Below, one piece after another: positions 6,090-59,074 of a stretch of DNA of 64,000 nucleotides (positions within the stretch are counted from its first letter, which is position 1; each line of letters starts with the position of its first letter). A program made the position numbers and the translations under genes. The notes under the pieces were generated by a model. It made no database searches. It had not been told where the DNA came from and saw nothing but the letters and a program-made list of their open reading frames with translations. The stretch is taken from positions 46,004,001 through 46,068,000 of the forward strand of contig OZ024747.1 in the NCBI GenBank assembly GCA_964016885.1. The letters run 5' to 3'. The stretch comes from Eledone cirrhosa (taxonomy: Eukaryota).

Positions 6090-9000
6090 TTATTGTTCAT
6101 TTAGCTTGGGTTTGAATTTATTAATAAAATTCTTTTCTTTGATTTTTCTCTTGATTTCACTTGGGCTGTGTAATTTGTAGAATGGGAATATTATAAATAT
6201 TCCCTGACCACATGTTGCTAGATGGTTACTTAGGGGTATCTGACGGACATTTGGGGTCTCTGATTTGTTGACGGTGTACCCGTGCACGTTCCGATAGTGC
6301 ATTTCCAGTTTGACCGACATATAGTTCTTCACAATTCGGGCATTTAATGCACTAAATTAGATTTCTGCTTTTGCAGTTCATATTTGCATTTGGGAATAAT
6401 TTTCCAGTTTTTGTTTTCATATATTGACCGGCGTGTATAGATTGACATGTGCCGCATCGACTATCATTGCATTTAGATACAGTGAATGATTGGTCTTTGT
6501 TGTTAAGGTCAAACTTTGCTTTTGTAAGTAATTGCTTCAAATTTTTTGGCTGTCTTTTACTAAGAGTCAAAGATCGATCTGTGATTAAGCCTTTTAATTC
6601 ATTACTTTGAGCAATGATCGGTAGGTTTGCTTTGGCAGTGTTGAAGATATTCTGGTGACATGGGTTGTGTGTCATTATAAATGGTATGACCAGTTCTTGG
6701 TTTCTTCTCCTTGGGTTGTCCTAAGTTGTTGTATAGGTATTTTTATAGCGCGCTGTATGCCATTTTCTATAAGTAGAGATGGGTATTTTTGTTTGAGCAA
6801 AAATTCTCTTAGTTCTTTTAGGCGTTTGTACCTGGTATTCGTATCTTCTACAATGGTACAAATTTTTCTGGCTAGGCAGTATGGGATGTTGCGTTTTGTA
6901 TGAGGTGGATGGCACGACTTAAAATTCAGATATTGATGGGTGTCTGTGTGTTTATAATATATATCCGTGGTAATGGTGGTGTCGTTTTTGATTATCATTA
7001 TATCTAGTAATGGTAATTTGGTCCTACTCATCTGTTTTGTGAATTGGAGAGATGGGTGTAGGTTATTCAGGAGGATATTGAACTCATCCAGAGTATCTAG
7101 AGATTCTGTTCAGATGATGAAACAGTCGTCAAGGTATCTCTTCCAAGATTTTTCAATGTACTTTCTAAAGTCAGTACTATATTTTTCCTCTATTTCTTGG
7201 TAGAGTTGTTGTTCTAAGTATCCCATTACAGAGTTCGCGTAAAAGGGAGCAAACTTCGTTCCCATCGCTGTGCCTCTAATTTGGATGTAATTCTTTCCAT
7301 TGAAGAAGAAAGTGTTGTTTTCCAGAATAAGTTTAACTGCGTCTAATATAAATGGCGCTGAGAATCTGATGGGAATCACTTCTCTATGTTTTTCCACCCA
7401 GTATTTAACCGCCTTTATTCCTAAATCATGTGTAATGTTGGTGTAAAGGCTTACCACATCAAAACTGAGTAGAAGTGAATTCGCTTCCGTGGTTTTGGGA
7501 AGATGGGACAGGAAGTCGATATCATACCGGATGAAACTGGGTATGTGAATACATAGTGGTTTCAAAATAATGTCAACAAAATTGCTTAGACATGGGTGGG
7601 GCATGTTGGACCAGCTATAATAGGTCTAAGTTTTAAGTCTTTTGGGTGTAGTAATTTAATGTACTCACTGTTTTGTTCTCTTACTGTCAGTTGTATTTCT
7701 TTTGACTTATGAATTTTCGGTAGGCCATACAGGTTGCCTGGTTTTGGCTCAAAATTCCTTATCAGTAAGTGAGTTGTGGTATTTTGAAGCCAGGTTGTTG
7801 ATCTTCTTCATGATGTTGTGGTCTATATTTGACGGTATTTCATGATAGAATGTTGTGTCTTTCAGTTGTTCCTCAACCAAATCCTTGTAGTATTCAGTAT
7901 CCATTATAACAACTGCACCCCCTTTATCTGCTTGTTTAATTATTATTGTTTTATCATTTTGTATACGTTTAAGTGCAGACATTTCTGATTTGTTAATGTT
8001 TGGCCTAACATTAGTATTATGTCTAAGAGGAAATTTAGACAGGATGTCAATGTATTGGTCGAGATAGATATTTCTTCCTTTTGGCGGAGTGAAATTTGAT
8101 CTATTCTTTACTAGTGATTCATCACTCTCATTACTTTTATCAGCGAAGAATTCTACAAGACGTAATTTTCGACAGAATTCTTGGGTATCCTCCTTCAGTT
8201 CTTGGTGGTTGACTGTTGGAGTTGGTGTGAATTTCAGTCCTTTTGACAGAATTTGCATTTCATCATTGTCAAGATCTCTTTTAGATAAATTAATTAATTT
8301 AGGATCTACGTTTTGGGTATGTTTCCTCCTGGAGTTTTTCTTTTTCCGGTTTTTGTTGTCCTGACGTTAAAAAATGGATTTTTCTCTGTTCAGGATTTAT
8401 ATTCCTGTTGGTGTTCGCTTGATGAACTTTTGGTCGTGATATTATATTTGGTTTCGTTATGTATGTTGTCCTATTTTTGATATTCTGTATATTATTTTTC
8501 TTCCTGTTAGCATTATTTTTAACAATCTGGGGAAATGACCTAGGTTTGCTTTCAGGTTTAGATCGTTTTTTCGTCCAGTTTCTTGTGGGCAATCTCTGTT
8601 GAGATCTTGAGAGTGATCTGGTTATTCTACGTTTTGTTTCCCATTCCTTATTGGTAGTCTCTGTTGAGATCTTGAGAATGATCTCCTGGTTTTACTACTT
8701 CTCATGGTCTGGTCAAGGAATATCTATCGTGTTTGTGCCTTTTTGTTCATGTTGTGTGCGTTAGGGTGTTTTTGTAGAAAAGGCGAAGAGTTATTACCGT
8801 AGTTCTTCTTTGATTCAAGGTAAGGTGAGTGTTTGTGTTGGCACGTGTTCTGGCGTATGTTGTGTTGATGAGATTGTCCACTTTTAATGCTTTTTCTCAG
8901 GGTTCCAGAGTCTTTACCGTAATTTGCAGCATATTCGTCGAGAAATAATTATTTCTACTGCCATACCTTTCTTGATTTGTTTTCTTCTTTTGAGATATCT

Positions 9001-12435: not shown

Positions 12436-13062
12436 GACACATACATACGTACACATATAGATATATACACACATACACACATATATATACATACATACAT
12501 ATATACACATACACATACATATAAAAATACATATATACATATATATATATACATATATATATATATACACATACATACACATATACGCGTATACATACAC
12601 ATACACATAAATATATACGCACATACACACAAACATACACATACATACATACATACAACCATTCATACAAATACGTACATACATACTACTCATAAATATA
12701 CACATATACACACAACATACATAAAGGAACCAAATAAATATTTTTAAAAAGACTCCAGTTGCATTTTCGATTTCATCTTTTTTCCTTACATATAGATAGA
12801 TCGATAGATAGAGAGATAGATAAATAGATTTCTTTATTAGCCACATGGGCGCACAAGAAAAGGGGACAATACAAAGACATGCTGGGGATTTTACATACAG
12901 TCGTGTAAAAAATATAAAAACAAACAATTACAACAATCGTAATCCCCAATAGAGGGTAGGCGCCACAAATGGGTTGTTTAATACCCCGTCGATAGAACAA
13001 CCCTCAACTCCAGGAGCGTGTTGTGAAAGTGCTCCTTTCTTCCGTTTGCTCTCTTCCTCAAC

Positions 13063-16000
13063 CTACAGGTTTATAAACAGAGAAGGCCCAACCACTCGGG
13101 CCATTTTCGCTTCATTCACCCACCTTTTAGTAAATTTACTGGGGTGCAGTGCCTCTCTCTCCTCCCTGATTCTCCTTCTAAAGTGATACTTAAAGAAGGG
13201 AATCAATTGTTGTCCGGAGAGAAAGGCATCTGTCCTCAGTCCTCTCAACCTCGTCCACCATATAACTTCTTTCACCATAGCCACCGTACAGAGGAAAACC
13301 GCCTCTCTTTCGTTTTTGAAAGAGGCTGGCGGTTTGATCCTTAGTATGGACTCGGCAGTCAACTGGATTTGTCCCATACGCGACAGCAATTGTTCTGCAT
13401 AGTTCCACAGGTCGGTTACGCCCGGGCAGTGTACAATTGCGTGCAGGACTGTTTCAATGTCCTGCGCGCATCTTGGACACGTCCTCTTGGAAGGATCCCT
13501 GCCGGGGCGTCCGTGCCTGTAGATCTTGTCACGAACCGGTAGAGCTCCTCGGTAGCACTGCCAGGCCAGGGACCTCTGGAAGTTGTCCATAGGTCCCGGG
13601 CGGAAAGTCCTACCAAACAGACTGGTGAGCTCATCGTCTTCGACGCCCAGAGTCTCTCCGAGCACGTCGTCGCCCTTGTAACGTACAATCCCTCTATAGA
13701 ATGTCGAAGTGGAGTCTCCACTGATTGCTGCGCCCGCTTGCCAGAGGACTGTGAGCACCTGAGCGCATTCAATGTGCCAGGCGCCCATCGTTTTCGGTCT
13801 TTTCTTCACCGGTGCCCACACCGGTTGGGGGTCGGTGAGGAATACCTGGAGATGCCGCAGCCTCAGCGCATGTTTGCGCATCATCAGCCATGGCATTCCC
13901 AGCCCTCCGTTGGAAGGGTGCTGACAGTAGACGGATCTCCTCACCAGCGGAGCCTGCTTCTGCCACAGAAACTGGAAGAGCATGCGTTCCATCTTGGCGA
14001 GGTGTTCACGGGGACAAGGCACGACAGTCAAGCGGTAGTAGATGACGGGCGCTATGAAAGTGTTCGCCACCTCCGCTCGACCTTTCAAGGACAGTTTGCA
14101 CTCTGCCCACTTCTGGGTGAGTGCAAACACCTTCGACATGACCTCGTTCCAGTTTTTCTCCACCTAGAGGTCTGGACCGAACCAGACCCCGAGCAATTTC
14201 ACCGGTCCGTCCGTCCAGCGTCCAACGACGCTGTCGGACGTCATCGGTTTGCCTCTCCACGTACCGAGTTGCAAACCGACATACTTGTCCGGGTTTAGTT
14301 TTTCTCCCGTCAGCGTTTAGTTTTGCTCCCGTCAGCGTTTCGTATTATTTCAGTAAGTTGCCGATCACCCCGATTTCCGAGGTGCTCGACACCATTACCG
14401 TCACGTCGTCGGCATAAGCCGACGCCGCTTTGCGCAGTCCCGGTTCTAGAGGGATGCCCTGCAACAGCTCCAATTTCTGCAGTAGTGGCTCTAGAGTAAA
14501 TACATACAGAATGGAGGAGAGAGGGCACCCCTGTCGAATGGAACGCGTGATTGCGAACGGCTCCGATAGGTAGCCGTTCACCTTGACTCTCGACTCTCGA
14601 GCAGATGCTGGTGTGCATCGCCTCGATCCATCCTCTGAACACGGGACCGAAACCGGCCGCCTTGAGAACCGCTTCCAAGTATCGATGGTCGACCCTATCG
14701 AATGCCTTAGACTGATCCAAGTTGATCAGAGCCCCACCGAAGCCGGGTTTACTACCCACCCTCTCTATGATGTATCGCATGAGGTGGAGGTTGTCGTGTA
14801 TGGACCTGGTCGGGATAGCACACGTTTGCGCTTTCCTTACCAGGTTCTCGACGACAAGCGCCAACCTCGTCGTTAGCACCTTGGCCAAAATCTTTAACTC
14901 TGTGTTGAGCAGAGTTATGGGCCTGAAGTTGTTAATCTCGTCTTTCCTGATCAGCGTTACTACGCCCTTGCCTGCAGAACCGGGAATTCTCCCGTTCTGC
15001 TGCCAATTGCAGTAGACGGCTTCGAGGACGCTAGAGAACAAGTCCGGCATGCCTATGTAAAATTTTTAGGGTAGACCATCTAGACCGGGTGACTTGCGTT
15101 TCCCGCAGCGGCCCAGAGCGTCCCGTATCTCAGTGTCCGTGATCGGTCTTTCGCAGAACTCGGCGTCCGTGTTCGAGAGACGCGGCAGGCCGTCGAGGTA
15201 TGAACTAAAGTCCATTGCCCCGTTCGGCTCACCGTCGTTCTGCTCAAACAGTCGCGCAAAGTGCCGCTGAAAGGCCGCGCACATTTGCTTGGGGTCAAGT
15301 AGCACGCGTCCGTTTTGGTCTTTCAAAGACAGAATCGTGGACTTGTTGCTACTTTTTGCCTCGGGCCCAGCTGACAGCTTTCGCTCCTTCGTTTCCTAGA
15401 GCACGTGTTTTGCTTCTGACCACGCAGCCTTCGTGCTTCGCATCGAAGAACTGGTCCAGTGCCGTTCTCGACGCTAACACTCTAGCCGCGTTGCCACTTC
15501 TAAGTGCCTCCTCTACCTTGGCTACTAGTTCTCTTTCTATTCTGTTTTTCTCTAAGGCTAACTCTCTGCTATACCCTATCGTTCTATTCTAATTGCTTTC
15601 TTGAGAGAGTACCACCATCTATTGTTGACGATGGCTCGCGTTAACTGTTGCTTGACTAGTCTACTTATCCGTTCACTGTAAGCTTTATGTGCCGGCAACG
15701 ACACGTTCAGCTTCCAGTATCCGGGACCCTGTCTATGTATTCTATCACGGTTGACTAAGCAGACGACTAACTTGTGATCTGAATAGGCAACCATGTGCAT
15801 TCGTGGACAGTTTAACATCTCCTTGTCCCTTTCTCTAATGAAGAACCTATCTAAATACGATCTAGATGTCCCACTGCGGTTTGCCCACGTCCACTGTGGT
15901 GCAGTCGGGAAATCCAGTCGATACCTATCGGCCAGTTGGAATTGGCCGATTAAAGTGTTGAGGCTGTTGCACCTCCCTCTACTGGGTCATGCTCCCACAT

Positions 16001-16460
16001 AGTCCCATCGTGCATCTAGGATACCATTCCAGTCCCCCACTAAAAGTAAGGAGCGAGACGTTCCCAGAAAAGACTCTAGACGCTTAAAGAAGTCTGGCCG
16101 TGATTGCGATTGCCCGGTCGGGGCATAAACGGCCACCAGTCTGAAGGCTCCACCTCCGATACTATTCACGTCTAGGACTAACAGTCTACCCTCCGGGTCC
16201 AAGTGTACTTTCTGTACTCCGACGTCCAGGTTCTTCCGAAACATGACAGCCACTCCACCTCCACCTCCTGGCTGATAGAGAGATGCGTAGATCTCAAAGT
16301 CGTCGAAGATGGGAGTTAGTTGCTGCCTGTTGTGGATCCTGGACTCGGTGATGGCTATCACATCCATACTGTGTGACCTAAGGTCGTTTAAAAGTTGGCC
16401 CTGTTTCTAGGGCATCCCTAGGCCACGCACATTCACGGTTCCAACTCGTAAACTAGCCAT
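13063..16460 (-). pseudogene. Tx1 copy A ORF2 (APE endonuclease, RT, C-terminal zinc finger), disrupted
   Basis: ITESR, LVGDWN, YSDHKLV, KSPGLDGLP, FRPITLLN, DQSKAFDRV, QGCPLS, AYADD, CPRC..H..C; stops, frameshifts and a ~22-bp duplication near 14293-14340. Confidence 0.92.
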
Positions 16461-16501
16461 GTTGGTGAAGAAAAGTTGGAGAAAAAGGACGAAAGGTGCA
16501 C

Positions 16502-18353
16502 TTACCTTTTCGTTTCCTGGAGATCGGGTTGTTCAATCTCCATTTGGGTGCTGGATGGGGTGTTGGGTGGGGTGGAGAAACATTTTAACAGGACGCGATT
16601 GATGGGTTTGTGGCAGGGGTTGCCCACGTTCTGTGAAAATTTATTTTTTAGGTCATTATAGGTTTCCATAGGAACCCTTATAAGTTTAAGGTGTAGAGAC
16701 GATTCTGCCTTGACGAAAGTTTTGCCCTCCGTCTCCACCTCGGGGTTTTGGGAGATGACCTCCATCAAACTCTTGTTGTTTGTGTTGATGTATGCGTATT
16801 GTTGTTTGTGTTTTTTGTGTTGTTTTAGTTTGTTGTTCGTCCGGGAGTTTTCTTTTTATGGTGAGTGCTTGTGTTTGGGGTGGTGTTGGTGCTGGTTTTG
16901 CTGATAGGAGGATGTTTGACTGTGGCGTTGTTTGTGTTGTTGTTTGTGTCTGTGGTTGTGTGTTGGTGTTGGTGTTTGAGTTTTGGGGATTTTGTGGTGT
17001 CTCTTTTTTGTTTTTTAGATTTCCGCGGTTCTACCTCTTCTTCACTTAAAGAAGGAGAAGCAGCTTCATCCATCAATGAATAATCATCGTCAGGTGGGTG
17101 GGGTAAGGGTATGTTGTGTGGTGGTGGTATTTGATGGAGTGGGATGGAATGGGGCTGTGTTCTTCAGGGGTGTTGTCTCTGTTTTTTCTGTTGTTGTTGG
17201 TTGAGTGTCTGTTTGTTTTGGTGTGGTTGCTCGTTTCGTCTGTCGTTGTACTTGTGGTGGTGGTGGTTGTTTTAGTGTTGGTGTTGGTAATAGCGTTTTT
17301 TTTATGATGTTGTTGTTGTGTGTTTGTGGACAAGAGGCTTTTAGGTGTGCTGTGCTATCACAGCGAAAGCAATGAAATTTTCGTCCTTCTACCGAAATGT
17401 TTATTTTGTTGTTATTATCGATAACGACTCTTTCGGGTATTTTGGAGATTCTCTCCGGTTTCATTTGCAACAGAATCTCCAAATCTGTGCCCGCCCACCT
17501 TTGTCGAATAGACTTTCGTATCGAAAGTATCATATCAGTTTCTGGCTCTACGAAGCCAGCCAAGATCCACCAGATGTTAATGTTTGGAGGTATGTTTTTT
17601 ATTTTTATTTTTTGTGTCCTTTTTCCCATGTATGTAGGGAAAAAGGTGTACGCTTTTGACACCATTGGTGTCACAGAGTTTTTTGGGCGAGTGCCTCGCT
17701 TTTAAACAGTACGGAAACACTTCCGTACTGTTTTCCTCGCTGGAGAAAATCGACATTTGCTAGAATTTCCTTGAAAGCATCTTCTATATCTGCTTGGTTA
17801 ACAAATGTCGGCTTTCTTGTGGAATTTGACACAGTCCTAAAGGTGACTGATCTGCGGATTGTGTCTTCCTTTATTTCAAGGGGTGAGTTAATTCTAAACC
17901 CACCTCTTTCTTCGAAAGTTACAAATTTTCTCCCTTGCTGGAGCATATCTCTTGCGTTGGAGATATCAAGATTTATAAAATCTTGTTTTTTGTTCACTGT
18001 TTCAGCGAAAGACATTTTCTATTTTTTGTGTGGTGTTGCTGTTGTTGTTGTTATCGTTGTTGGAAATCTCAGTTCCTTGTCGAAGTGAAACATTATGTGT
18101 ATATGTATCTGTAGAGTTGTTGGTGTCTTTTTTTCATGTGTATGTATGTTAATTGGTTTAATTCCTGTGTTTTCCTGTGTGTTATTGTAATTTTTTCCGC
18201 TGAGACGGTAGAAATTTTAAAATTTTCAAGTGCTAATATATTTTTCTCTTTGTTGACACTTGTATCTATGGCGACGTCCATAGTAGCAGAAGCAGATATA
18301 ACGTTAATATCTGCCTCTTTCTCTCTCTTTTCTCTATTAACGTTCTCCAGCAT
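16502..18353 (-). pseudogene. Tx1 copy A ORF1 (gag-like, zinc knuckle), disrupted
   Basis: Fragments homologous to copy B ORF1 (YMGKRTQ, INISVEGR, CCHC knuckle, KPINRVLLK). Confidence 0.85.
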
Positions 18354-18760
18354 TAATTTTAAAATAAAATGTTCGCCCCTACAGGGTCGAAAAATGGGAT
18401 TACCACCCGGCTGACAATTCAGCTTGGGGTTAATCTACAAAGTGTTATGTTTTTTCAAACAATTAGTTCGGTTTTTTGCATAGAAATTAACAAAAAAGCT
18501 TACCGGCGATTTTCCACATGTCAAACAGAAAGATAGATAGATATATTTCTTTATTTACCATAAAGGCATAAAAAGAAGGGACAAATACAAAGGGGGAGTT
18601 TACATACAATCGAGTAAAAAGGGTGTAGCATGAAAATAATCGAAAATAACCTCAAAAGGGAGGGGACGTGATGGGGGTTGCACACACCCCCGAAAAAGTG
18701 TGCCAACCTTTGCCCGGGGAGCACATGGAGAAGGTGCTCCCCTCTCCTTTCCTTCTTTAC

Positions 18761-21700
18761 CTACAGGATGGTATACAGAGAAGGCCCATTTACACGAGCC
18801 ATTCTCGCCACTATCACCCACCTTTCATAAAACTGCCTGTGGCCAAGCACCTCTCTCGCCATTCTTATCCTTCTTCCGAAGTGATATCGGAAGAAGTAGA
18901 CCAGACTATGGCCAGAGAGGAAGTTGCCTGACCTCAGACCTTTCAATCGTGTCCACCAAACAACCTCTTTCAACATGGCTATTACGCACAGAAAAACCGC
19001 CTTTGCTTCCTTTGTGAAGAGGGGAGGCGGTTTGATTGTCATCACGGACTCGGCGGTCAATTGAATCGGCGCCACACGCGACAGCAGTCGTTCGGCGTAG
19101 CCCCACAGATCAGCCACGCCCGGACATTGCACCAATGCGTGCGCAACGGTTTCTTCGTGACGCACGCATCTAGGGCAAATCTTTTTTGAGGGATCCCTGC
19201 CCGGGCGCCCGTGTCTGTAGAGCCTCTCTCGAACGGGTAGAGCCCCTCGGTAACACTGCCAGGCCAGTGACTTCTGGAAGTTGTCCATTGGTCCTGGGCC
19301 GAAAGTCCTACCGAACAGGCTGGCCAGTTCGTCTTCTTCCATGTCCAGCGACTCTCCAAGGGTGTCATCGCCCCTGCTAGCCACCAGCCCTCTATAGAAT
19401 GATGAGGTGGATTCTCCACCGATGGCTTGGCTCGCTTGCCAGAGAGCCCTGAGCGCCTGAGCACACTAGTGTGCCAGTCTCCCAGTTTTCCAGATCTTTG
19501 CTTGACCCAGGACTGTAGCTCGGTGAGCGAGACGAGTCTCGGAAAGGCTCGTTTCACGAACGGAGCCCACACCGGTTGACCAGTGAGGAATACCTGTAGG
19601 TGCCGTAGCCTTAATGCGTGCCTACGCATCATCAACCACGGCATCCCCAGCCCTCCTTTCGAAGGTTGTTGGCAGCAGATGGATCTTCTCACCATAGGAG
19701 GGCGCTTCTTCCAAAGAAATTGGAAGAGCATGCGTTCCATGGTGGTGAGTGTTTCCTTAGGGCAAGGCACGACAGTCAGGCGGTAGTAAGTGACGGACGC
19801 TATGTAAATGTTCGCCACCTCCGCCCGGCCTTTTAGGGACAGCTTACACTTGGCCCATTTCTGGGTTAGTGCAAACACCTTGTTCGTAACCTCGTTCCAG
19901 TTCTTTTCCACCTGGAGATCCGGTCCAAACAAGACCCCAAGCAACTTTACCGGGCCCTCCGTCCAGTATCCGACGACACCGTCGGGAGGCATCGGTTTGC
20001 CTCTCCACGTTCCGAGTTGCAGCCCGATGTATTTTTCCCGGTTCAGTTTCGCTCCTGACAACCTTTCGTAATCCTCCAGTATGGTACCGATCGCCTCGAT
20101 CTCCGAGTCGGTCGATACCATTACTTTTACGTCATCAGCGTAGGCCGACACCGCTTTGCTCAATCCTGGTTCCAGGGGGATACCCTGCAACAACTCCAAC
20201 TTCCTCAGTAAAGGCTCGAGAGTCAATACGTACAGAAGGGAGGAGAGAGGGCACCCCTGTCGAATGGATCGTGTGATTTCGAACGACTTCGAAAGGTAGC
20301 CGTTCACCTTGATCCTAGAACAGATGTGGTTGCTATGTAAGGCAGTGATCCAGCCTCTGAAAACAGGACCGAACCCAGCCGCCGCTAGCACCGCATCCAG
20401 GTAACCATGGTCGACCCTATCGAAGGCCTTAGACTGATCCAAGTTGATCAGGGCCCCACCGAAGCCGGGTTTGTTGCCAACCCTCTCTATGATGTATCGC
20501 ATGAGGTGGAGGTTATCGTGAATGGACCTGGATGGGATAGCACATGTCTGCGCATCTCCCACCAGGCCACCCACGACAAGCGCCAACCTCTTTGCTAACA
20601 CCTTGGCCAAAATTTTTAACTCTGTGTTTAGCAGAGTTATGGGCCGAAAATTATTTATACTATCTCCCTTGTTCTCGTCCTTCCTCACCAGCGTGACGAC
20701 GCCCTTGGCTACAGAACAAGGAATTCTCCCGTTCTGCTGCCAATTGCAGTAGACCGCTTCGAGGAGTTCGGAGAAGAAGACCGGCATTGCTAAATAAAGT
20801 TCGTAAGGTATACCATCGTGACCTGGAGATTTGCGTCTGCTGCATTGGCTCAGCGCATCTCCGATCTCATCAGCCGAGATTGGTCCCTCGCAGGACTCTG
20901 CCTCTTCGCTCGAGAGACGCGGCAGGCCGTCGAGGTATGGACCGAAATCCACGCCCCCGCCCGAACCCTCGCCTCCCCCGAAAAATCGGGCAAAGTGCCT
21001 TTGAAAGGCCTCGCACATCTGCTTAGGCTCCCGGATCACCCGTCCATCTTCGTCTTGCAACGACCGGATGGTAGATCGATTTCCACTCTTAGCTTCTGTC
21101 ACGCGGGCCCAGCCAACGGCTTTGGCCCCCTCATTACCTAGAGCACGTATTTTACTTCGAATGACGCAGCCTTCGTGCTTTGCATCGAAAAACTGGTTCA
21201 AGGCCGTCCTCGATGCCAGCACTCTGGCCACATCTTCGCTCTTGATTGCCTCTTCTAATTTACCTGTTAATTCTTTCTCGTTTCTATTCCTATCGGCAGC
21301 TAACATCTTGCTATAACTTATTGATTCTGTTCTAATCTCTCTTTTGAGAGATGCCCACCATCGGTTGTTGACGATTGCACCCGTCAACCTCTCCTTAACT
21401 AATCTGCTAATCCGGTTTCTGTAAGTCTCTTTTGCCGGTAAAGACAAATTAAGTTTCCAGTAACCGGGACCCTGTTTATGTGTTTTCTCGAGATTGACTA
21501 CGCAGGTCACTAATTTGTGATCCGTGTAGCCAGCCGTGCGCATTTCTGGACAGCTTAATATGTCCCTATCCTTACTTCTAACTAAGAATCTATCTAAGTA
21601 CGATCTAGATTGACCACTGTGGTTTCTCCAAGTCCAGGTAGGCACAGTTGGAAAATCTAGTCGATACCTATCGACCAAGTTAAAACGGTCGAGTAACCCC

Positions 21701-22197
21701 TTGAGGCTGTTACACACCCCTCTATTAGGACATGCTCCTGCATAGTCCCAACGTGCATCTAGGATGTCATTCCAATCCCCCGCTAGAAGCAGGGAACGCG
21801 ACGTTCCCAGAAAAGTCTCCAAACGCTGGAAGAAGTCGGGCCGTTCAGCTCCGAAAGGGGAGTAGACGGCGACCAGTCTCAAGGCCGCACTTTCACTACT
21901 GCCAACGTCTAGCACTAACAAACGACCCTCCGGGTCCGAGTGCACAACCTGTACGGCAAGACCCAGGTGTTTTTGCAGCAGTACGACAACCCCACCCCCA
22001 CCTCCAGGTTGACAGAGAGATGCATGCACCTCAAAGTCATCGAAGGTGGGGGCCAACTGCCGCACGACGCTGATTCGAGTCTCACAGATAACCATTACAT
22101 TTATACTACATGACCTGAGGTCATTTAGAAGCTTTGCTTGCTTCCAAGTTGAGCCCAGGCCACGTGCATTCAAACATCCTACTCTTAACACATCCAT
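18761..22197 (-). CDS. Tx1 copy B ORF2 (APE + RT + CCHC), nearly intact with one frameshift near 19460
   Basis: 1046-aa ORF with GCLNARGL, ICETR, AGDWN, SYLDRF, YTDH, RPITLLN, AYADD; C-terminus continues in the 18761-19384 frame (CPRCVRHEETVAHALVQC). Confidence 0.93.
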
Positions 22198-22230
22198 GTG
22201 GGCGGCAGAGCCAAAGGAGAGTGTAGAGAC

Positions 22231-23939
22231 CTACCTTTCCGCTTCCCGGGGTTCGGGTCGCACGACTTCCATGGGGTCGGGGGTGTTGGGTGAAGGGGTG
22301 TCTTGTGGTGGTGTGGGGTCGTCAGTGTGTGGTGGGGTTGGGGTGTTTGGAGTTGTGTTGGGGAGGGGAAGGGGAGGGAGAAAGCTTTTTAGTAGGACGC
22401 GGTTTATGGGTTTGACAGAGGGTGGTCCTACGTCCTCCTTAAAATCCTTTTTTAGTTTTTGGTAGAGGTTCATTGGGATCTTTATTAATTTTAAATGTGG
22501 GTAGTTTTCTGAAGAAACAAAGTTTACACCTTCGGTTTGTACCGAAGGATTATTGTTTATGAGTTCATTTAATTTATTATTGTTTCTGTTGATGTAAGTA
22601 TAGTGTAATGTCTTTTTTTCGGATGGTGTGAGTGTTTCGAAGAGGGGAGGGGCAGGTTTGGTTTTGTTTGTTGCTGGAGGGGTGTTTTCTGTTTTGTTGG
22701 ATTGTGTTGACATTTGGGTGTGGGTTGTTTGGCCTTGTGTGTTTTGCACATGTTTTCTTTTTTTCCTTTTACTCTGTCTGAAGGACTCCGTTTCTTCCTC
22801 CGAATTCGTTGGGTTATCTTCAGTGTTGGTAATGTTTCCGTGTTGGTTTTCTTTGTGGGGGAGATGGATGTCACTATGTTAGACTGTGTTGTGTGTTGTG
22901 TCTGCGGTGGTTGTGTTGTTTTATTGAGTGAGAGGTTGGGTGGGCCTGTATTTTGTTTTGGGGTAATGTGTTGTGACTGTTTGTGTTGTGGTGGTGGTGT
23001 GGTTTTACTGAGGGACGGGTTGGGTGGGACTGAGTTTTGTTGTTTGTTTATCTGTTGTGGTGGTGGTGGTGGAGCTGGTGTTGGTAGCAGGGTTTTCTTT
23101 TTGTTGAGTTGGGGACAAGCGGCCTTCAGGTGCCCTCTGCCTGCACAGATATGGCAGGACGGCCTTCTCCCCTCCACGCTAATGTTTATATACCCGTGGC
23201 CCTCTAATAGGATTCTGTCGGGTATTTGGGCGATGCGTTCAGGCTTCATTTGCACTACCAGCTCTTTACCTGTTCCACTGAACGCATTGCCTGTGGTTTT
23301 CCCAATGGAAATCACGTTGTCATTCACTGGATCGATGAAGCCAGCTATGAGCCAGCAGTAGTCCACATCTGGCATCATTGCATCCAGCCATATGCGTTGA
23401 GTTCTTTTACCCATATAAGATGAATAAAAGGTAAAATTTTTCGAACGAATCGGTGACAAAGCACATTTTTTTGCCGCCGATTCGTTCTTCATGATAATTG
23501 CTAGGCTTCCATACAGTCTGTCTTTTCTTATGAAAGTGGTTTCATTAAGTACTTCTGTGAGTACTGTTTTGATATCTGCTTGAGAAGGCTGTTCAGGTTT
23601 TTTTGTAGTGTTGTTGATGGTGCGGAACTTGACCGTTCGGCTTTCAATGTCTTTGGTGAATTCTTGAGGCATTTTTACCGATAAAATACCATTCTCTCCT
23701 TCACTTATGTATTGTTTGGCGTCTGTGATTCTTCGTGCCACATCTGAAATATTTTCGGGTATATAAGTCAAAGATTTCTTTGTTGTTTGTGCAAATGAAA
23801 TCTTGACTCTGTCGTCTGCTTTGCTTTCTGCTATGGTGTTATTTTCAAATGTTATTTTTGTGTCTGTTGTGTCTTTGTTTGTGGTGTTAGTATTGTCATG
23901 CAATTTTTCAAATTTTTTTTTTTCGTTGTTGGAATCCAT
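22231..23939 (-). CDS. Tx1 copy B ORF1 (zinc knuckle CHICAGRGHLKAAC), one frameshift near 22760
   Basis: 456-aa ORF plus an overlapping 172-aa ORF that carries the C-terminus conserved with copy A. Confidence 0.88.
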
Positions 23940-24349
23940 GTCCAGATTTGTGTTTTCGTCATTTTTCTCCGCAGATTCGTCTGTTTTTATTTTAATTTTT
24001 CCTTCCTTCTCTATGACGTTAGTTGGGAAGGAAGGGGGACAAAAGCGTGCGAGCTTACAACACTTACCGCTGTTCCCCCACCACTATTTTCGTTCGCTTC
24101 GTTCAACATTTTTGTCAGACGATTGAAATTTTTTTTTGACACAACATTTTTTAAAACAGGCTTTTCACCTCTAGGAGGGGTAAAGATGAGCTGACCCACC
24201 GTCTGACAGTTCAGACGGGGGGTCAAGCTACACAATGGTATCAAAATTAAATTTGAACTCACAAAATTTCCGTAATAAATTTGAACAAAACTTCTGCGCG
24301 AAGTGAATTACATCCACACTGTAGAACAGACGACAGCTAGATTATAAAC

Positions 24350-24353
<4 letters not shown>

Positions 24354-24430
<77 letters not shown>
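24354..24430. repeat. (GATA)n microsatellite
   Basis: About 19 perfect AGAT units directly at the Tx1 copy B 5' end. Confidence 0.98.
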
Positions 24431-31371: not shown

Positions 31372-33768
31372 TAGGCATATTCCTAAAGTACACTTTTGTT
31401 AAAAATATAAATGAGCATGCCATTTTCAGATGAACTTTTACTAGAAAATACTTGTGAGCATGTTAAAAAATATTAGAATTTTAAAAAACTCTTGCACAAG
31501 GTAGATTCTCAAACATTGATTAACTAATATAGAATTGCATATACAATATAGGTGTGTATGTAATAAAAATATAGTGTGCAATTTAACAGTTTATAAAATA
31601 TAGTATTCTTCTTCAAATTGTTTAATGGATCAACTTTATTGCTTGTTCATCACTTATTTGCCAGTTTAATCTGTTCATAAAATTCATTAAATACATAAAT
31701 AGAATAAATTAAAATTTGCGAGGTATATTTATTACTATATTTTAATATTTATAAGTATATTATATTAATATTATAAATTTCAGATGTATAAAAATCCAGT
31801 TGCTAAAGAGGAAAGTAAAAAGATTTGGGCACAAAATATTTGTCATTTTGAGAAGAGAAAGAAATCTAGGAAAACGAAAATTCAAAGTTCATTAATCGAA
31901 TTATGCAAGCTACCTACTGAGAGCAACAGATCGTTGATAGATATATCACTCTTGCTGCTGAAGAGAAAAATACCCAAAAAAGAATTAAGATAATTACTGG
32001 AGAATGTGAAAGTTTATGGGAAAAGTTCATCTTTCCAACTATCAACAAACTTTCAATACCTCGAAAAATTGAAAAAATAATTTTAAAAAAAAAGGAAAAA
32101 GAAGTGAAAAGACCTGGCTCTGCGAATTTCAATAATCTGTTTGACATTACAAAAAGCTATGGGATATGGATAGCAGCCGAAGATTTGTCATTTTATGAAA
32201 AGTTGAGAGTTGTGGAAAGGTTGGGTATACTACAATGAAAATAGACAGTGAAAAGAAAATCCATCCTTCTAAGAGAATTAAAAACAAAAAAAAACAAGAA
32301 CTAGATCATGATAAGCCATCCTGCTCATACATTCATCTGGACTCAAATGAAAGTTACAGTGACACCGATACAAATACCAGCGATTACAAATCTTCACCTT
32401 CACCTTCACCAGAAAAAAAAAACGAAAAAGAGAAAACACAGCTCATGCTGTTTACCTAGTAAGAAATACTAAATTACCTAGTAGAAAAGCAGCAGCAGTT
32501 TGCAACGAATTTAAAAGTGGTGGTATTAAGGTGAGCACTCTGAGTAAGTCGGCAATGCACAAAGCAGTTATCAGAGAAGGTGAGAAACTCATGGAAAAGT
32601 TTAAAAATGAACTCAAAAGGGAAAAATGGAGCCTTCATTTTGATGGAAAACGAATGAGAGACGTAGAATATCAGGTTGTAGTGATACAAAATGATGAGAA
32701 AGAAATACGCCTGAGGCCGATGGCATTAACCGATGGAAAGGCTCTTACTATATTTAATGGATTGAAAAAAGTTATTGACAAATATGAATTGTGGGAATCT
32801 ATCGTGATGATAGTCTCCGACACAACTAGTGTCAATACCGGCAAAAAGGCAGGAGTTGTTGCCATGCTCAACAGTGATTTCTCGCATCGCGGTTACAGCA
32901 AGCCATTATATGTTGGATGCCAGCACCACATTTTTGACCGTGCATTGCAAGTTTATTTTGATCAACTATATAGTAGCAAAACAACTTCGCCATATATCAA
33001 TTATTACTTTGTTGAGGCCATTTTAAAGAACTATGACGAACTGAAGCAGAACTTTTCAAATGGAATGACGGAAATTAATGAAACCCCGACGCGCTGGAGA
33101 AGTGACATGGATTTCCTTCAGCATCTCATGATAGCCGTGCAACATTTCTTTGAAAACGGTGCGTTTCCTAAAATAAATTTTAAGAAATTACCTAATTTTC
33201 ACAATGCTCGTTGGAATAGCCGAGCAATTTATTTGTTGCTTGGGTTTATTTTGATGCCTGATGAACGAGCGAAGCTGCGCGCTGGTGCCGAATACACCTG
33301 CGGAATGTGGGGAAAAATGTGGTTCTCAAGTCAACTGTATAGAGCTGACATCAAGCAGAAACTCATTGACCAACTAATTAAGGCCAAGTGTGAAAATGCT
33401 GCAAACATCGTCAGAAAACTTGGGTCTAATGAAGAATCTCCAATTGTGACGCAACGCTCGAACATTTGCGCTGAGCGAGCTGTAAAAGTTGTGCAGGATC
33501 TTTTGGCATTTTGTAAAAGTAGTAGAACCTTAGAGATTAAATTTTGTCTAACTAATAATTAAAATTAATTTTTTATTGTCATAATATATTGTTTTAGGTA
33601 TTTATTTTATGGGACTGGCTAATTACCAAAAAATTAAAAATATAATTTAGTATGTTCAAGAATTTTTTTCAAAATTTACAAAAAAACTACTGTAATTCTT
33701 TCTTTATGACAAAATCCTCATTAGAAAATAGCATGCTAATATGGGGTTGTAAAAAAGTCATATGCCTA
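31372..33768 (+). mobile_element. hAT-type (hATm-like) DNA transposon
   Basis: TIR TAGGCATAT (31372-31380) / ATATGCCTA (33760-33768); inverted subterminal agcatgcyattttc; 8-bp TSD gtgtgtat / gtgtttat. Confidence 0.85.
31784..33562 (+). pseudogene. Transposase; N-terminus frameshifted, catalytic part open (32531-33562)
   Basis: LHFDGK, VSDTTSVNTG, CQHH (CxxH), HNARW, ICAERAVK: DDE plus CxxH signature. Confidence 0.85.
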
Positions 33769-36342: not shown

Positions 36343-39300
36343 TTTCTTTATTAACCACAAGGGTTTACATAAAGTAGACATTAAGGACAGTGCAGGACAA
36401 TGCAGGACGGTACAAATGGGCATTTCTGCGTGTAAAAAACAAAAACAGAGGATGTAACAAAAAATAACAATGAAAAATTCCCCAATAGGGGGCAGACTTC
36501 GGAGGGACATTTGTGGAGAAAGCCCAGTAAAAAGCCACAATGACCCTGACCACCAAGGCAAGTGCCCTCTCCCAGTTTTCCACCTTTAATTTACAGATAT
36601 ATACTCAGAGTAGGCCCATTCACTCGGGCCATTCTTGCTTCTCTCACCCATCTTTCAACAAAATGCTGGGAAGAGAGCACTTCCCTCTCTACTCTGATTT
36701 TCCTTTTCAAATGAAATTTGAAAAAGTCAATCAGAGCATCACCGAAGAGGTAAGTGCTCGTCTTCAGCCCTTTCAAACGTGTCCACCATACTATCTCTTT
36801 CACCATGGCCACCAGGCAGATAAAAACTGCCTGCCCTTCCCGGCTAAAGGAGGAGGGCGGGGCAATCCTCACGATGGACTCAGATGATAGCCGGATCCGT
36901 CCTAAACGCGACAGCAGGTGTTCGACATAAACCCACAAGTCAGCAATTTTCGGACACTGGACGAGTGCGTCGTGCAGGACGGTTTCGTCGCCCTGCGCGC
37001 ATCTCGGACATGCCCGGCTGACGGCACCTCCATGCCTGTAGAGTTTATCCCGAACTGGCAAGGCTCCTCGGTAGCACTGCCAGGCCAGGGATTTCTGGAA
37101 GTTGTCCATAGGCCCTGGCCCGAAAGTTCTTCCGAAGAGATTGGCTAGTTGATTTTCGTCGACGCCTAGAGTTTCCCCAAGTACGTCGTCGCTCTTTCCC
37201 TCCACTAATCCTCTATAGAACGCCGAGGTGGAGTTTCCACCGACCACATTGCCCGATTGGTCGAGGGCTGTGAGCGCCTGAAGACATTCCAGTCTCCAGG
37301 CGCTCCCTCTCGGTCTTCGCTTGACCCAGGACTGCAGCTCCGTCAAGGAAACGAGCTGGGGAAATACGTGTCTAGCAAACGGCGACCACACCTGATCACC
37401 GTCGAGGAAGAGGTGGAGATGTCGTAGCCTGAGCGCGTGCCTGCGCATCATCAGCCACGGCATGCCCAGCCCTCCACGTAGCGGGTGTTGACAACAGATG
37501 GACCGCCTGACCATCGGAGCACGTCCCTTCCACAAAAAGCGAAAGAGCAAACGCTCCAGCGCAGTCAGGCGAGGCTTAGGACAAGGTACGACGGTCAGGC
37601 GGTAGCAGATGACAGACGCGATGTACGCATTCGCCACCTCCGCTCGACCTTTCAGGGATAGCTTCCTCTCCGCCCATTTCTGGGTGAGAGAAGCCACCCT
37701 GCTCGTCACCTCGTCCCAGTTTTTGTCCGTCTGGAGGTCCGGACCGAACCAGACCCCTAGCAATTTAACCGGTCCGTCCGTCCAGCGCCCGACGACGCTG
37801 TTGGACGGCATGTACCTGCTTCTCCAGGTGCCGAGCTGCAGGCCCACTGACTTTTCCTGGTTGATCATTGCTCCTGTCACCGCTTCGTATTCTCTTAGTG
37901 TAGTGCCGATCGCCTCGATGTGTTTGGCGTTCGACACCACTACGGTGAAATCGTCCGCATATGCTGACACGGATCTTCCACATCCTAGTTCGCGCGGGAC
38001 TCCCCTCAACGTCTCCAGTTTGTGCAGTAATGGCTCGAGAGTCAATACGTACAAGAGGGACGAGAGGGGACATTCTTGGCGGACCGAGCGCATGATGTTG
38101 AACGGTTCCGACAGGTGACCGTTCACTCTCACCACAGAGCAGATGTCGCTGTGCATGGCAGCGATCCAGCCTCTGAAGACGGGCCCAAAGCCAGCCGCCC
38201 TCAGGACTGCCGCTAGGTAACGATGGTCGACCCTATCGAAAGCTTTCGACTGATCTAAATTGATCAAGGACCCACCCGTGCCAGGTTCCCTAGCTACCCT
38301 CTCTACGATGTATCGCATGAGGTGGAGGATGTCGTGGATGGATCTGTCGGGAATGGCGCATGTCTGCGCCTCTCCCACCAGACCACCAACGACAAGCGCC
38401 AACCTCTTTGCTAGCACCTTGGCTAAAATCTTGAACTCTGTGTTTAACAGTGTTATGGGCCGGAAATTATCTATGTTATCCCCCTTGTTCGGATCCTTTC
38501 TCAGCAGTGCCACCGCTCCTCGGCTCACAGAACTGGGAATTCTCCCGTTCTGTTGCCAGTTGCAGTAGACGTCCGCCAAGATGCCTCCGAACAAGTCTGG
38601 CATCTGTACGTAAAGTTCATAGGGCAGACCATCCAAACCAGGCGATTTACCCCTTGTGCAGCCAGTCATTGCCTCCCTTACTTCAGCGGCTGTTATCGGC
38701 TTTTCGCAACACTTCGCCTCAGTGGCCGAGAGCTGCGGCAGTCCGTCGAGGTAGACACTAAAGTCCATCCCTCTACCAAGCCCACCGCTGCCCCCGAACA
38801 GCTGAGCGAAGTGTCGCTGAAAAGCTTCACACATTTGCCCGGGATCGAGTAGCATGCGCCCGTCGTGGTCCACCAAAGACCGGATCGTGGCTTTGTTGCC
38901 ACGACGCGCCTCCGCCACTCGGGCTCATTGAACGGCTTTCGTCCCCTCGTGTCTGAGAGCACGCATCCTTGCTCTGACAACGCAGCCTTCGTGCTTTGCA
39001 TTGAAGAATTGGTCAAGGGCCAATTTCGCCGCAAGCACGTCGGTCGCAATGCCTTTGCTAAGCGCCTCGTCTAATTTTTTAACTAGTTCTCCCTCTGCTC
39101 TATTTTTCTCTATTGCTAAAGCCTTACTAAACCTAATCGATTCTATTCTAATCGCTCTTTTCAGAGCAAACCACCACTTGTTGTTGACGATGGCCCCCGT
39201 CAACGCCCGCTTAACTAGTTCGCTAATCCGGTCTCTGTAGGCCTTGCGCGCTGGTAAGGACGCGTTTAGCTTCCAGTAGCCGGGTCCTCGTCTATGAAGT

Positions 39301-39755
39301 CTATCTAAGTCAAGCACACAGATCACGAATTTGTGGTCCGTGTAGCTGACTATCTTGAATTTTGGACAGCCTATGCTAGACCTATCTATTTCCCTACAAA
39401 ATACTCTATCTAGATATGATCTGGATGACCCTATGCGATTTGTCCAAGTCCACATTGGCGCATTCGGGAAATCCAATCGGTACCTGTCAGACAGTTCAAA
39501 ACGCCTGAGCAGGTTGGTGAGGCTCTTGCACCCTTCACCCCTATCCGCTAATCCCACACAATCCCAGCGTGCATCTAAGATCCCGTTCCAGTCGCCCACT
39601 AACACTAAAGAGCGGGACGTTCCAAGAAAGGTCTCCAGACGCCGGAAGAAATCAGGCCGCCCTGCTCCTGTCGGGGCATAGACGGCCACTAGCCTGAAAG
39701 CTTGCCCGTCTCCGCTGGTCACGTTCAGCACCACCAGCTTACCCTCTGGGTCCAG
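36341..39755 (-). mobile_element. 5'-truncated Tx1-like LINE, copy C (ORF2 only), in (TAA)n
   Basis: APE (LVGDWN, YTDH), RT (AYADD) and CCHC, one in-frame stop near 38925; (AAT)13 at the 3' end and (AAT)4 at the truncated 5' end. Confidence 0.93.
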
Positions 39756-39767
39756 AATAATAATAAT

Positions 39768-42700
39768 CCACCGGTGGTTATGTAACCATACATTCGCCAA
39801 ACCTCGATAAGAGTGTTTAAATGTCCAACCTAAACAGTTCGAATAACGGTGAAATGGAGACTAGAACGTCATGTGACAGACTCTCACCCAACAGGTGCTC
39901 CCTGGCTCAGCAGCAGGGACCTGGCTGTCAACCAAATACTGCTGGTGTCGGAGGAAGAAGAAGAAGGAAAGGGACCAGAACCAACTGGACGGAAGAATTG
40001 AATAGAACTGTTATGCAATGTTACCTGAAAAGTAACCCCAAGGAGAGGGGCTATAGGAAACGGATGCATAACATCTGGAACGAGATTGGTCTATTTAAAT
40101 TAGATGAACAAAAATTGGCCGGGCAGGCTCGGGTAATAAGAACTAATGGGTGGATAAGCGAGCTGGAACTGGAGGAACTGAGCAGAGAGATTAGTTTGGA
40201 GATGGAGGGTGGAGTATGCAAGGCAAACGAGCCAGTGGGAAATGAAGGTGAAGAGGTCGAGAGAACGGAGGAACCACCCGAAGCAGACAATGATCTGAAT
40301 ACTGAGATAAATAATACCTGGAACAGAGATACGGCCACTGAGGAGATGAATGCTGACGGGCTAGGACAAGATTTGGTTGATATCCTAAATTTAGTGGTAG
40401 ATGAATTGAACAATGATAGTGGGAGACCTATGAACCTAAGATTTGTAGACAGGAAAAAGTTAAAAGAAACAACAGCTAAGGTAAACAAAGTCATCCCATA
40501 CCTTGAGGCGAGGAGCCTTCACCAGTGCAACAATATCCTCAAAGCAACAGCAAATACGGTGAGGAAACTACTTGGTATAAAAGCGAGAGGAAACAACAGA
40601 CAAGAAAGAGCAGAGCCTTGGTGGAAGAAACGACTGAGTGGTCAAATCAGGGAAATGAGAAATGACATTGGAAAGCTTGAGTCCCTACTGAATGGGACAC
40701 TAAAAAACATAGACACTAAAAATAGACTGGAAATAAAGTACAAAACTAGGAGGAAAAAGCTAAATATTATCATAGAGAAACTGAAGCAACGCATTGTAGC
40801 AAAGAGTGCAAAAATCAGGCGATACGAGAACAGAGTCAGTCAGTATAAACAGAACCGCATGTTCGACAACAACCAGAAGATGTTGTTTGGACAGCTTGAA
40901 GGGAAAGAAAGAGGCAATGACTTGATCCCTGAGGCGGAACAAACTAAAACATTCTGGAGAGGAATATGGGAGCAGGATGTTAGACATAATGACCAGGCAG
41001 TGTGGATTGAGACAGTACAGGAGATCAGTAAACAGGCACACCAACAAACTGATTTGAGTATCACAGTTGAAACTCTTAAGGGGTAGGCCAAAAAACTAAC
41101 CAACTGGAAATCACCAGGCCCAGATGGTGTGCAGGGGTATTGGATTAAAAATATAACATCCCTCCACCCGAAACTGACAACCATGTTCAATGACTGCTTG
41201 ATGTCAGGTGAGGTACCAGAGTGGTTGACAAAAGGTACCACAGTTCTGATAATGAAAGACCGAATCAAGGGTAATGATGTTACCAAATATAGACCTATCA
41301 CATGTCTGTCCGTAATGTGGAAACTGTTGACGTGCATTGTGTCTGAGGAAATCTACCATCACCTCCACACAAACAACTTGTTACCGGACGAACAGAAAGG
41401 ATGCCGAAAGAAGTCACGTGGTACAAAGGACCAGTTACTTATTGATAAGATGGTAATGGGGATTTGCAGGAGGAGACACACTGATCTTGCCATGGGATGG
41501 ATAGACTAGAGAAAGGCATTTGACATGGTGCCTCATTCTTGGATCACCAAAAGCCTGGAGATCTTCAAGGTGACAGATAACATCAGACAGTTGTTGGGCA
41601 AAAGTATGAGGTCCTGGGAAACAGAGTTAACATCAACTGGAGAATCCTTGGGAAGCGTGATGATTAAGAGAGGTATCTTCCAGGGAGATAGCCTGTCCCC
41701 TCTGTTGTTTGTCCTTGCCATGATGCCCCTGACCAGTGTACTGCGAAAAGTGAGAGCAGGATACAGGTTGGGAAAGGGAGTGCTTACCATCAATCACCTC
41801 CTCTTCATGGACGATCTTAAGCTCTTCGGGAAGAGTGAGAAGGAGTTGGATGTGCTTGTTGACACTGTCCGTATTTTCAGCAGTGATATATGTATGCAAT
41901 TTGGTATTAGTAAGTGTGGAGTCATTGTGATGAGGAGGGGTAGGTTGAGCAGAAGTAACGGAATCCAGATACCAACAGGTGAGATGATAAAGGAAATTGA
42001 CTCTGAGGAAGGATACAAGTATTTGGGCGTTCTGGAGGCTGATAGCATAAAGAACAAAAAATGAACGAATTGTTAAGAACTGAATACATTCGGAGAGTAA
42101 GGAGCGTATTGAAGTCACATCTGAACAGCAGAAATGCCATAAGCGCAGTAAATTCCCGAGCTGTGTCTATTATTAGGTACAGTGCGGGAATTCTGAGATG
42201 GAATGTTGCTGAACAAAAAGAAATGGATAGGAAGACTAGGAAGCTATTGACTATCTACAACATGTTCCACAAGAGGAGTGATGTCGATAGACTCTACTTA
42301 AGGAGATCTGAGGGTGGAAGAGGTCTTATCAGCATAGAGGACTGTGTTCAGTTGGAGAAAAACAACCTACACAAATACGTGACTGATAGTAAGGAGCCAA
42401 TGCTCAGAACTGTACTGAAGGAGGGGACAATAGGCCAGGGGATGTACAGGGAGGAAATAACATCAAGGAGAAAGAGCAGCCTTCAGGAAAAATCCCTTCA
42501 TAGTACCTTCTTTGAGAAAACTGAATTTAGAGATCCACAGACATGGAACTGGTTGAAAAGAGGAGACCTTAAAAAGGCTACAGAAGGAATGTTAATGGCT
42601 GCGCAGGAGCAGGCCCTCAAAACGAAGTGGTTGAAACACCATATTTACAAGGAGGAGGCTAGCCCACTGTGCAGGATCTGTGGAGAGAGAGAGGAAACTG

Positions 42701-43317: not shown

Positions 43318-43324
43318 TAATAAC

Positions 43325-43381
<57 letters not shown>

Positions 43382-43382
43382 T

Positions 43383-58980: not shown

Positions 58981-59074
58981 ACATCGCGTACCGTTGAAGA
59001 AGAAACGCGTTCCACTTGTATATAGGATATCAACTGAAAAATGCATATCTCACATATATATATATATATATATA

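Follow-up and report, generated by a model that had tools for sequence, protein, structure and literature searches.

What is a splice donor doing across the stop codon of the first gene of a retrotransposon? The question arises from a 64,000-nucleotide (nt) stretch of the Eledone cirrhosa genome (assembly GCA_964016885.1, contig OZ024747.1, positions 46,004,001 to 46,068,000 of the forward strand; hereafter the window), which holds two full-length long interspersed nuclear elements (LINEs) of the L1 group, A and B, arranged head to tail on the minus strand inside (TATC)n-like repeats. Each carries two open reading frames (ORFs), ORF1 and ORF2, separated by a short pyrimidine-rich spacer. A sequence-only reading had noticed the metazoan donor consensus over the ORF1 stop of both elements and proposed that it opens a mini-intron of 51–53 nt whose removal fuses ORF1 to ORF2 as a polyprotein. 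Our analysis supports that reading in part: the junction is as described and the donor is conserved, the mini-intron fusion is rejected, and a feature made of the donor and a predicted long-range helix is better supported. We tentatively favour a reading in which the whole of ORF2 would be a retained intron, although we judge its probability to be a little short of even.

A donor motif kept across families and frames

We searched the 3.0 Gb genome with a degenerate pattern over ORF2 codons 5–15, which is blind to the junction, and obtained at least 12,535 matches, against 0 with a reversed control. Loci were read as the first 30 in position order, 40 chosen for variety and 29 more of the third element in the window, together with 100 long stretches. 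Twenty of the long stretches had no recognisable ORF2 end and were set aside, and of the remaining 82 sequences, which include the two window copies, 6 were dropped for lack of a donor match or a stop anchor. The copies were grouped by hand into 15 families with 68–97% ORF2 identity between them, each with a hand-picked representative; the single-copy types M and N lie outside these 15. The description of A and B as two full-length copies stands for their extent; both, however, are damaged (A by a stop at ORF2 codon 18 and frameshifts, B by frameshifts in ORF1 and late in ORF2), and at 76% ORF2 identity they belong to separate families and are not two copies of one.

The letters at the junction are confirmed in both window copies, which read AAA AG/GTAAGT in A and GAA AG/GTAGGT in B (the slash marks the exon boundary), and the conservation predicted for other subfamilies holds far beyond these two. 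The donor was present in 28 of the first 30 position-ordered loci of the ORF2-start motif, which were chosen without regard to it. Among the 15 representatives, −1 G, +1 G, +2 T and +6 T are unchanged and +5 G is found in 14, while the flanks vary; the variants are GTAAGT, GTAGGT, GTGAGT and GTAATT. For comparison, 17.5% of 366 fourfold sites in the ORF2s of the same families are invariant, and only 6 more similar motifs occur elsewhere in the 85.6 kb of the 15 representatives. Within family A the exact GTAAGT is present in 93 of 100 listed copies, with the donor GT kept in 97, and the B donor is present in all 30 best-matching B loci.

The position of the donor relative to the reading frame is not constant. 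Ten families have it in phase 2, so that ORF1 ends Arg-stop; in G, G2, J and H2 it is in phase 1 and ORF1 ends Gly-Lys/Glu-stop; in family I it is in phase 0. It is retained with TAA, TAG and TGA stops alike. Because the donor is kept across phases 2, 1 and 0, selection acts on the nucleotides and not on the frame. The motif is more than chance and has the U1-type consensus, placed where the structural gene ends.

Most families examined (A, B, F, F2, G, G2, H2 and I) have a second donor-like motif, at 28–99 nt from the start of the element. About 65–70 nt past this motif, A, F and F2 have a T-rich stretch that ends in TAG, an arrangement that resembles a 5' untranslated region (UTR) intron retained in genomic copies.

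Predicted pairing of the ORF1 end with the 3' UTR

The first ~60 nt past the ORF2 stop are purine-rich and complementary to the ORF1 end, the donor and the spacer. The predicted helix reaches from the ORF1 stop to a few bases short of the ORF2 ATG. For 13 of the 17 copies tested, no more than 3 of 300 shuffles reached the native pairing in either shuffle test, and in 13 of the 17 the best partner window in the whole element was the one at the ORF2 stop. A wider and coarser scan of ORF2 plus UTR, slightly biased to the own window, placed the best partner at the stop in 56 of 76 copies.

Spacers also prefer the 3' UTR of their own family. The mean pairing energy of own spacer with own 3' UTR was −46.1 kcal/mol, compared to −36.3 kcal/mol for foreign pairs, and after centring none of 100,000 own-versus-foreign permutations reached the own value, a figure inflated by the relatedness of the families. 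Two control regions were null in the same test (29,799 and 31,498 of 100,000). The A and D representatives were changed between the 17-copy shuffle test and the permutation test, and the new D representative has D's own type of 3' end, which favours the helix. Matched changes are seen at donor +4, which pairs as A-U in 5 families and G-C in 4, and at +3, which pairs as A-U in 7 families and G-C in 1. Both arms have diverged between families and yet, by predicted pairing, fit each other best, a family-specific complementarity.

The 3' UTR arm also folds locally, and cofolding gains 7–33 kcal/mol over the separate folds. The modelling suggests that this arm may have two competing states. An anti-donor stretch lies in or beside a local hairpin in the 3' UTRs of B (window ~18740-18715), H2, G and G2; in the H2 copies the stem and loop of this hairpin differ from those of H with the fold kept.

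The same end of ORF2 looks like an acceptor. In A and B a pyrimidine run ends in the ORF2 stop TAG itself, and by a simple pyrimidine score the stop AG ranks 1–3 of about 250 ORF2 AGs in A, B, E, F, F2, F3, H, H2, I and K, and 5–13 in G, G2 and J. Joining the B donor to it reads AG+G TAA, which gives the same Arg-stop end of ORF1 as the unspliced RNA. Furthermore, each of the 15 families has some AG among the final 12 nt of ORF2 at which splicing would end ORF1 after no more than 4 residues, whichever of the three phases applies; with a lenient rule for the acceptor, permutation gives p=0.006 for this frame closing. A far acceptor at the ORF2 stop is a fair, if sequence-based, inference.

Candidate roles for the donor and the helix

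The direct observations, namely a donor conserved independently of frame, the near acceptors that fail as detailed below, the family-specific complementarity and the rank of the stop AG, could be brought together if ORF2 were a retained intron. The conserved donor on the ORF1 stop likely binds U1, and its likely partner is an acceptor at the ORF2 stop, not one at the ORF2 start; the product would be an ORF1-only message. The predicted helix, in which the donor and spacer pair with the first ~60 bases of the 3' UTR, would mask the donor and so keep full-length RNA unspliced; both the formation of the helix in living RNA and the direction of its effect are predictions. ORF2 would most likely be made by reinitiation on this unspliced RNA, as for L1, since its ATG stands as a norm in an A/C-A-C context and since family I has none. 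In that family ATA replaces the ORF2 ATG in 5 of 5 copies (L195-L199) and is overlapped by the ORF1 stop TAG, with ORF1 extending through the spacer; the copies are ~1–2% apart, and the ORF2 of L199 is open for 1146 codons. Family I is likely a natural case of AUG-independent ORF2 translation. In its most complete form the scheme is of a LINE with its whole reverse transcriptase gene in a spliceosomal intron and its own antisense switch: the 3' UTR hairpin would open and clamp the donor 3.4 kb upstream, one fold being spliced to the ORF1-only message and the other protected, translated into ORF2 and copied, so that the clamp would serve as proof of full length and bar spliced RNA from entering the genome. 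We regard this complete version as doubtful.

Several results weigh against the retained intron and its helix. On the acceptor side, family C, which ends in TAA, lacks a good acceptor (ranks 88–124), and a YTNAY branch point 12–60 nt before the ORF2 stop is absent in 12 of 15 families. The lenient frame-closing rule was chosen after the data had been seen, stricter rules give 12/14 (p=0.057) and 8/14 (p=0.076), and the families are related. No genomic copy joining the ORF1 end to the 3' UTR was found in A or B, the B search having used both 3' flank variants. Spliced human L1 RNAs do leave copies, amounting to ~1.8% of full-length L1s according to the available text of PMC5860796. A spliced RNA here would have lost ORF2 and the spacer arm, which would explain the lack of genomic copies.

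On the helix side, pairing is weak in B: 31–40 of 300 shuffles reach it, and 2 of 5 copies have their best window at the stop. For window copy A it is modest (8 and 2 of 300 shuffles). No more than 8, 8 and 9 of the 15 families have donor positions +2, +3 and +4, respectively, paired, these positions being mismatched in F, F2, F3, G and G2 and mostly in H2, so that U1 would not be fully blocked everywhere. Family D fits in 5 of 16 copies, its 3' ends being mixed and often those of another family, and a compensatory change at donor +5 in D, suggested by one copy, was dropped since it is found in 2 of the 15 with the 3' end seen. Finally, no relative outside this genome was readable in context: searches of other organisms gave three proteins at 25–40% identity without context, and no loci in metagenome or viral contigs. 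Two comparisons count neither way. Contig sets X1, X2, X4 and X5 against A and B gave 15/469 joints, none at the donor, from runs of unrecorded kind and contigs that drop rare forms; for element B the X4 contigs alone showed 3 joints, of which none lay at the donor or at the stop of ORF2. The X4 contigs also looked relatively deeper over ORF1 than those of X1, a difference set aside because depth in contigs is no guide to the ranking of gene parts.

Several of these difficulties would be accommodated by a role for U1 without splicing. U1 bound at the donor could shield the nascent RNA from early cleavage or stimulate transcription, the helix could later free U1 for export, and the acceptor look of the stop would be incidental. 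Such a role fits the frame-independent conservation of the donor, the lack of spliced genomic copies, the missing branch point and the absence of an acceptor in C, as well as the donor-like motifs near the element start, and U1 plays a part of this kind in the Arabidopsis Ty1/Copia element EVD, where it protects full-length RNA (PMC5580714, in the part available). However, there are few poly(A) signals in ORF2 to guard, with none in 9 of 15 representatives and the nearest at least 624 nt away, and the top rank of the stop AG and the closing of ORF1 within 4 residues in all phases are left unexplained. We consider this account rather unlikely. It shares with the retained intron the best-supported step of both, a conserved donor with an antisense partner encoded by the element itself.

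The helix could instead serve mainly translation or packaging, the donor being secondary. Extending over the ORF1 stop and spacer to within a few bases of the ORF2 ATG, it would bring the ORF2 start next to the ORF2 stop, and might set the rate of reinitiation or mark full-length RNA for the protein of the element. Coupling in SART1 requires a downstream structure and L1 ORF2 is made by termination-reinitiation (available text of PMC5972666), and stringent LINEs recognise a 3' stem-loop (available text of PMC4176376). A purely structural role does not need a U1 consensus, however, and the donor is invariant even where its partner bases mismatch, as in F, F2, F3, G, G2 and H2. We therefore view this possibility as improbable.

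The mini-intron fusion fares worse. The arithmetic behind it is correct: in A the ORF2 ATG is at 16460 and the first AG ends at 16453, so that removing 53 nt joins K-S-L-R-V-G in the ORF2 frame, and in B the ATG is at 22197 and the first AG ends at 22184, so that removing 51 nt joins E-R-V-G. The in-frame join is nevertheless not more than chance, because any ORF2 codon with AG as its first two letters matches the frame of a donor placed within a final AGG codon. The two near AGs sit in different ORF2 codons (3 in A and 5 in B); codon 5 is a conserved Arg, usually AGA, and family A has CGA there and relies on codon 3. An acceptor conserved in phase with the donor was not found. Donors occur in phases 2, 1 and 0, and in 6 of 15 families (D, G, G2, H2, I and J) the first AG past the donor misses the ORF2 frame; four more families (E, F, F2 and F3) have it in frame, at a distance of only 39–42 nt. 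In-frame segments of 51–61 nt occur only in A (part of the copies), B, C, which has a CAG acceptor, K, and one of two H copies.

An intron of 39–42 nt is too short by general expectation. A 50-nt intron cut-off is named in the available text of PMC5435141, and our literature search found no minimum intron length for this animal group.

Within family A itself, a hand count of the 100 listed copies finds the codon-3 AG missing in 46 (36 GGT, 6 AAT and 4 other non-AG). In a tree of 22 A copies the shortest branches are mostly GGT copies and four AAT copies form their own clade, which means that A elements without the near acceptor multiplied at least twice. Cis preference in L1 retrotransposition (available text of PMC5860796) leads one to expect intron-less copies to be common if ORF2 came from spliced RNA. 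Exact-flank genome searches found 0 intron-less A copies against 484 unspliced ones, and 0 for B, for which there is no matched unspliced count. With both the phase and the acceptor varying in this way, fusion as a general mechanism is already largely refuted, and we hold it to be very unlikely in any form.

A still poorer candidate is that a terminal Arg codon followed by a stop, together with common descent, gave rise to the motif as a by-product, with complementarity arising from base composition. AGG TAR does supply six of the eight letters in phase-2 families, and purine and pyrimidine runs pair easily, as the foreign pairs averaging −36 kcal/mol attest; however, the motif is kept in phases 1 and 0 and at the untranslated +5 and +6, and own pairs exceed foreign pairs and shuffles, so that this already contradicted explanation is highly improbable. 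Least probable of all is stop-codon read-through from ORF1 into ORF2, the alternative raised for B, where the frames do agree across TAG: by spacer lengths worked out by hand they agree in only 5 of 15 families (B, E, F, F2 and H2), which is the chance share, and the identity of the stop codon varies.

The elements, their neighbours and known systems

The ORF2 proteins have the domain order of the L1 group, with an apurinic-type endonuclease, a reverse transcriptase and a C-terminal zinc-binding region. Pfam matches are Exo_endo_phos, RVT_1 and zf-RVT, the last just below its cut-off, and the ORF2 of an intact relative, L171, has human L1 ORF2p as its top PDB match (E 1.9e-46, residues 6-857), with R2 at 4e-20. 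A Pfam scan of ORF1 from A and B gave no match, and a CX2CX4HX4C knuckle is visible in their translations. We take A and B to be Tx1-like, a label that we assume. Target preference, which is frequent in the Tx1 clade and not universal, is found in these families. By eye, among loci L161-L220, the element ends carry (TATC)n-like repeats in A, B, F, F2, H2, I and K, and (ATT)n in C, D, G, G2 and at the start of J; family E ends in a different, non-repetitive target and forms arrays at ~5.8 kb spacing (L100-L105). The type of target repeat tracks the ORF2 tree.

Some elements are mosaics, in which the same ORF1 and junction precede differing 3' ends: D elements have either their own or that of C type, a G copy has the C type, and an A copy has yet another. 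The F and F2 representatives are 97% identical in ORF2 and have ORF1s that cannot be aligned.

Several other mobile-element remnants share the window (Table 1). A non-LTR (long terminal repeat) element adjoins the truncated C copy; we assume from its appearance that it is of the restriction-like-endonuclease type. It contains a 1.85 kb tandem duplication with 96% identity (41525-43374 / 43380-45218). One reverse-transcriptase-like frame is presumably Penelope-like.

Table 1 Features of the window and related copies in the genome, with window positions
Feature	Position	Strand	Remarks
Element B	18547..24354	−	Full-length L1-group LINE (taken as Tx1-like), family B; (TATC)n flanks
ORF1 of B	22231..24083	−	Start not fixed; CX2CX4HX4C knuckle; frameshifted in window copy
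Donor motif AG/GTAGGT of B	22229..22236	−	Over ORF1 stop TAG 22233-22231; GT at 22234
Inter-ORF spacer of B	22198..22230	−	Pyrimidine-rich; predicted helix 5' arm (22246-22204), weak in B
Proposed near acceptor AG of B	22184..22185	−	ORF2 codon 5, conserved Arg codon AGA
ORF2 of B	18761..22197	−	Exo_endo_phos, RVT_1; 1046 aa open, late frameshift; with spacer, candidate retained intron
Pyrimidine run of B ending in ORF2 stop TAG/G	18761..18784	−	Acceptor-like, rank 1/252 AGs
3' UTR start of B	18717..18761	−	Purine-rich; predicted helix 3' arm, has anti-donor stretch
Element A	12830..18531	−	Full-length L1-group LINE (taken as Tx1-like), family A; tandem, directly downstream of B
ORF1 of A	16502..18353	−	Putative start; CX2CX4HX4C knuckle in translation; frameshifted in window copy
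Donor motif AG/GTAAGT of A	16500..16507	−	Over ORF1 stop TAA 16504-16502; GT at 16505
Inter-ORF spacer of A	16461..16501	−	Pyrimidine-rich; predicted helix 5' arm (16517-16464)
Proposed near acceptor AG of A	16453..16454	−	ORF2 codon 3; not conserved
ORF2 of A	13063..16460	−	Endonuclease, reverse transcriptase, zf-RVT; broken copy; with spacer, candidate retained intron
Pyrimidine run of A ending in ORF2 stop TAG/G	13063..13086	−	Acceptor-like, rank 3/267 ORF2 AGs
3' UTR start of A	13013..13063	−	Purine-rich; predicted helix 3' arm, has anti-donor stretch
Second donor-like motif	18503 (A); 24262 and 24067 (B)		Also in L173, L177, L183, L184, L185, L193, L196, L199
Family C ORF2, 5'-truncated	36591..39764	−	Third family in window; bait for full-length C copies
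Mosaic copies			L241-L260, L207 (D); L182 (G); L227 (A)
Other non-LTR element	39821-45218	+	Adjoins truncated C copy
Reverse-transcriptase-like frame	46351-49052	+	Presumed mobile-element remnant
Reverse-transcriptase-like frame	7110-8366	−	Mobile-element remnant
Transposase-like frame	32363-33562	+	Remnant, name presumed
Endonuclease-like C-terminus	58427-59083	+	Remnant, name presumed

Among known systems, the spliced GAG RNA of Arabidopsis Copia elements comes closest. In EVD, splicing yields a GAG-only RNA (shGAG), from a donor that is better conserved than its acceptor (available text of PMC5580714). As in the Eledone elements, a conserved donor lies at the end of the structural gene, and in EVD the spliced RNA serves for the structural protein and the unspliced RNA as genome. 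In contrast, EVD belongs to the LTR elements, and its single GAG-POL frame, short intron and coupled early termination are all established by experiment. The candidate intron here would take up all 3.4 kb of ORF2 in a bicistronic LINE, and a long-range helix is predicted over its donor.

Other systems share parts of the arrangement. Human L1, also an L1-group element with cis preference, has splice donors and acceptors in its own RNA, and its SpIREs arise from events within the 5' UTR or between 5' UTR and ORF1, are called dead ends and leave genomic copies (available text of PMC5860796); the donor of the Eledone elements, in contrast, sits at the end of ORF1 and has been retained from family to family, with no spliced copy found for A or B. 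Kibi and Koshi of the Tx1 clade combine an L1-group ORF2 with insertion into microsatellites, as here into (TATC)n or (ATT)n, often in tandem, but the repeat units differ, and the available text does not mention a donor on the stop of ORF1 or a spacer paired with the 3' UTR (PMC4494074). The termination-reinitiation of L1 and SART1 likewise involves a bicistronic RNA with a short spacer and a retained ORF2 start (PMC5972666, in the part available); unlike there, the structure predicted here has a partner 3.4 kb off and includes a splice donor, and one family has no AUG. In the open-access literature, Repbase reports and subscription journals being outside our search, we found no description of a LINE whose ORF1 stop carries a splice donor paired with the 3' UTR. 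A recent annotation of octopus repeats includes active L1-Tx1 families, and the words splice and intron are absent from its available part (PMC13282606).

The donor matters in part through its numbers. With at least 12,535 copies of the ORF2-start motif in the genome, each full-length copy would bring a strong donor that, left unmasked, could capture host splicing. How LINEs make far more ORF1 than ORF2 product and how their full-length RNA escapes splicing are known mainly from mammalian L1 and a few insect elements. If the retained-intron reading is true, these families would be LINEs that use a solution like that of retroviruses and Copia elements, with an RNA switch provided by a co-varying long-range helix.

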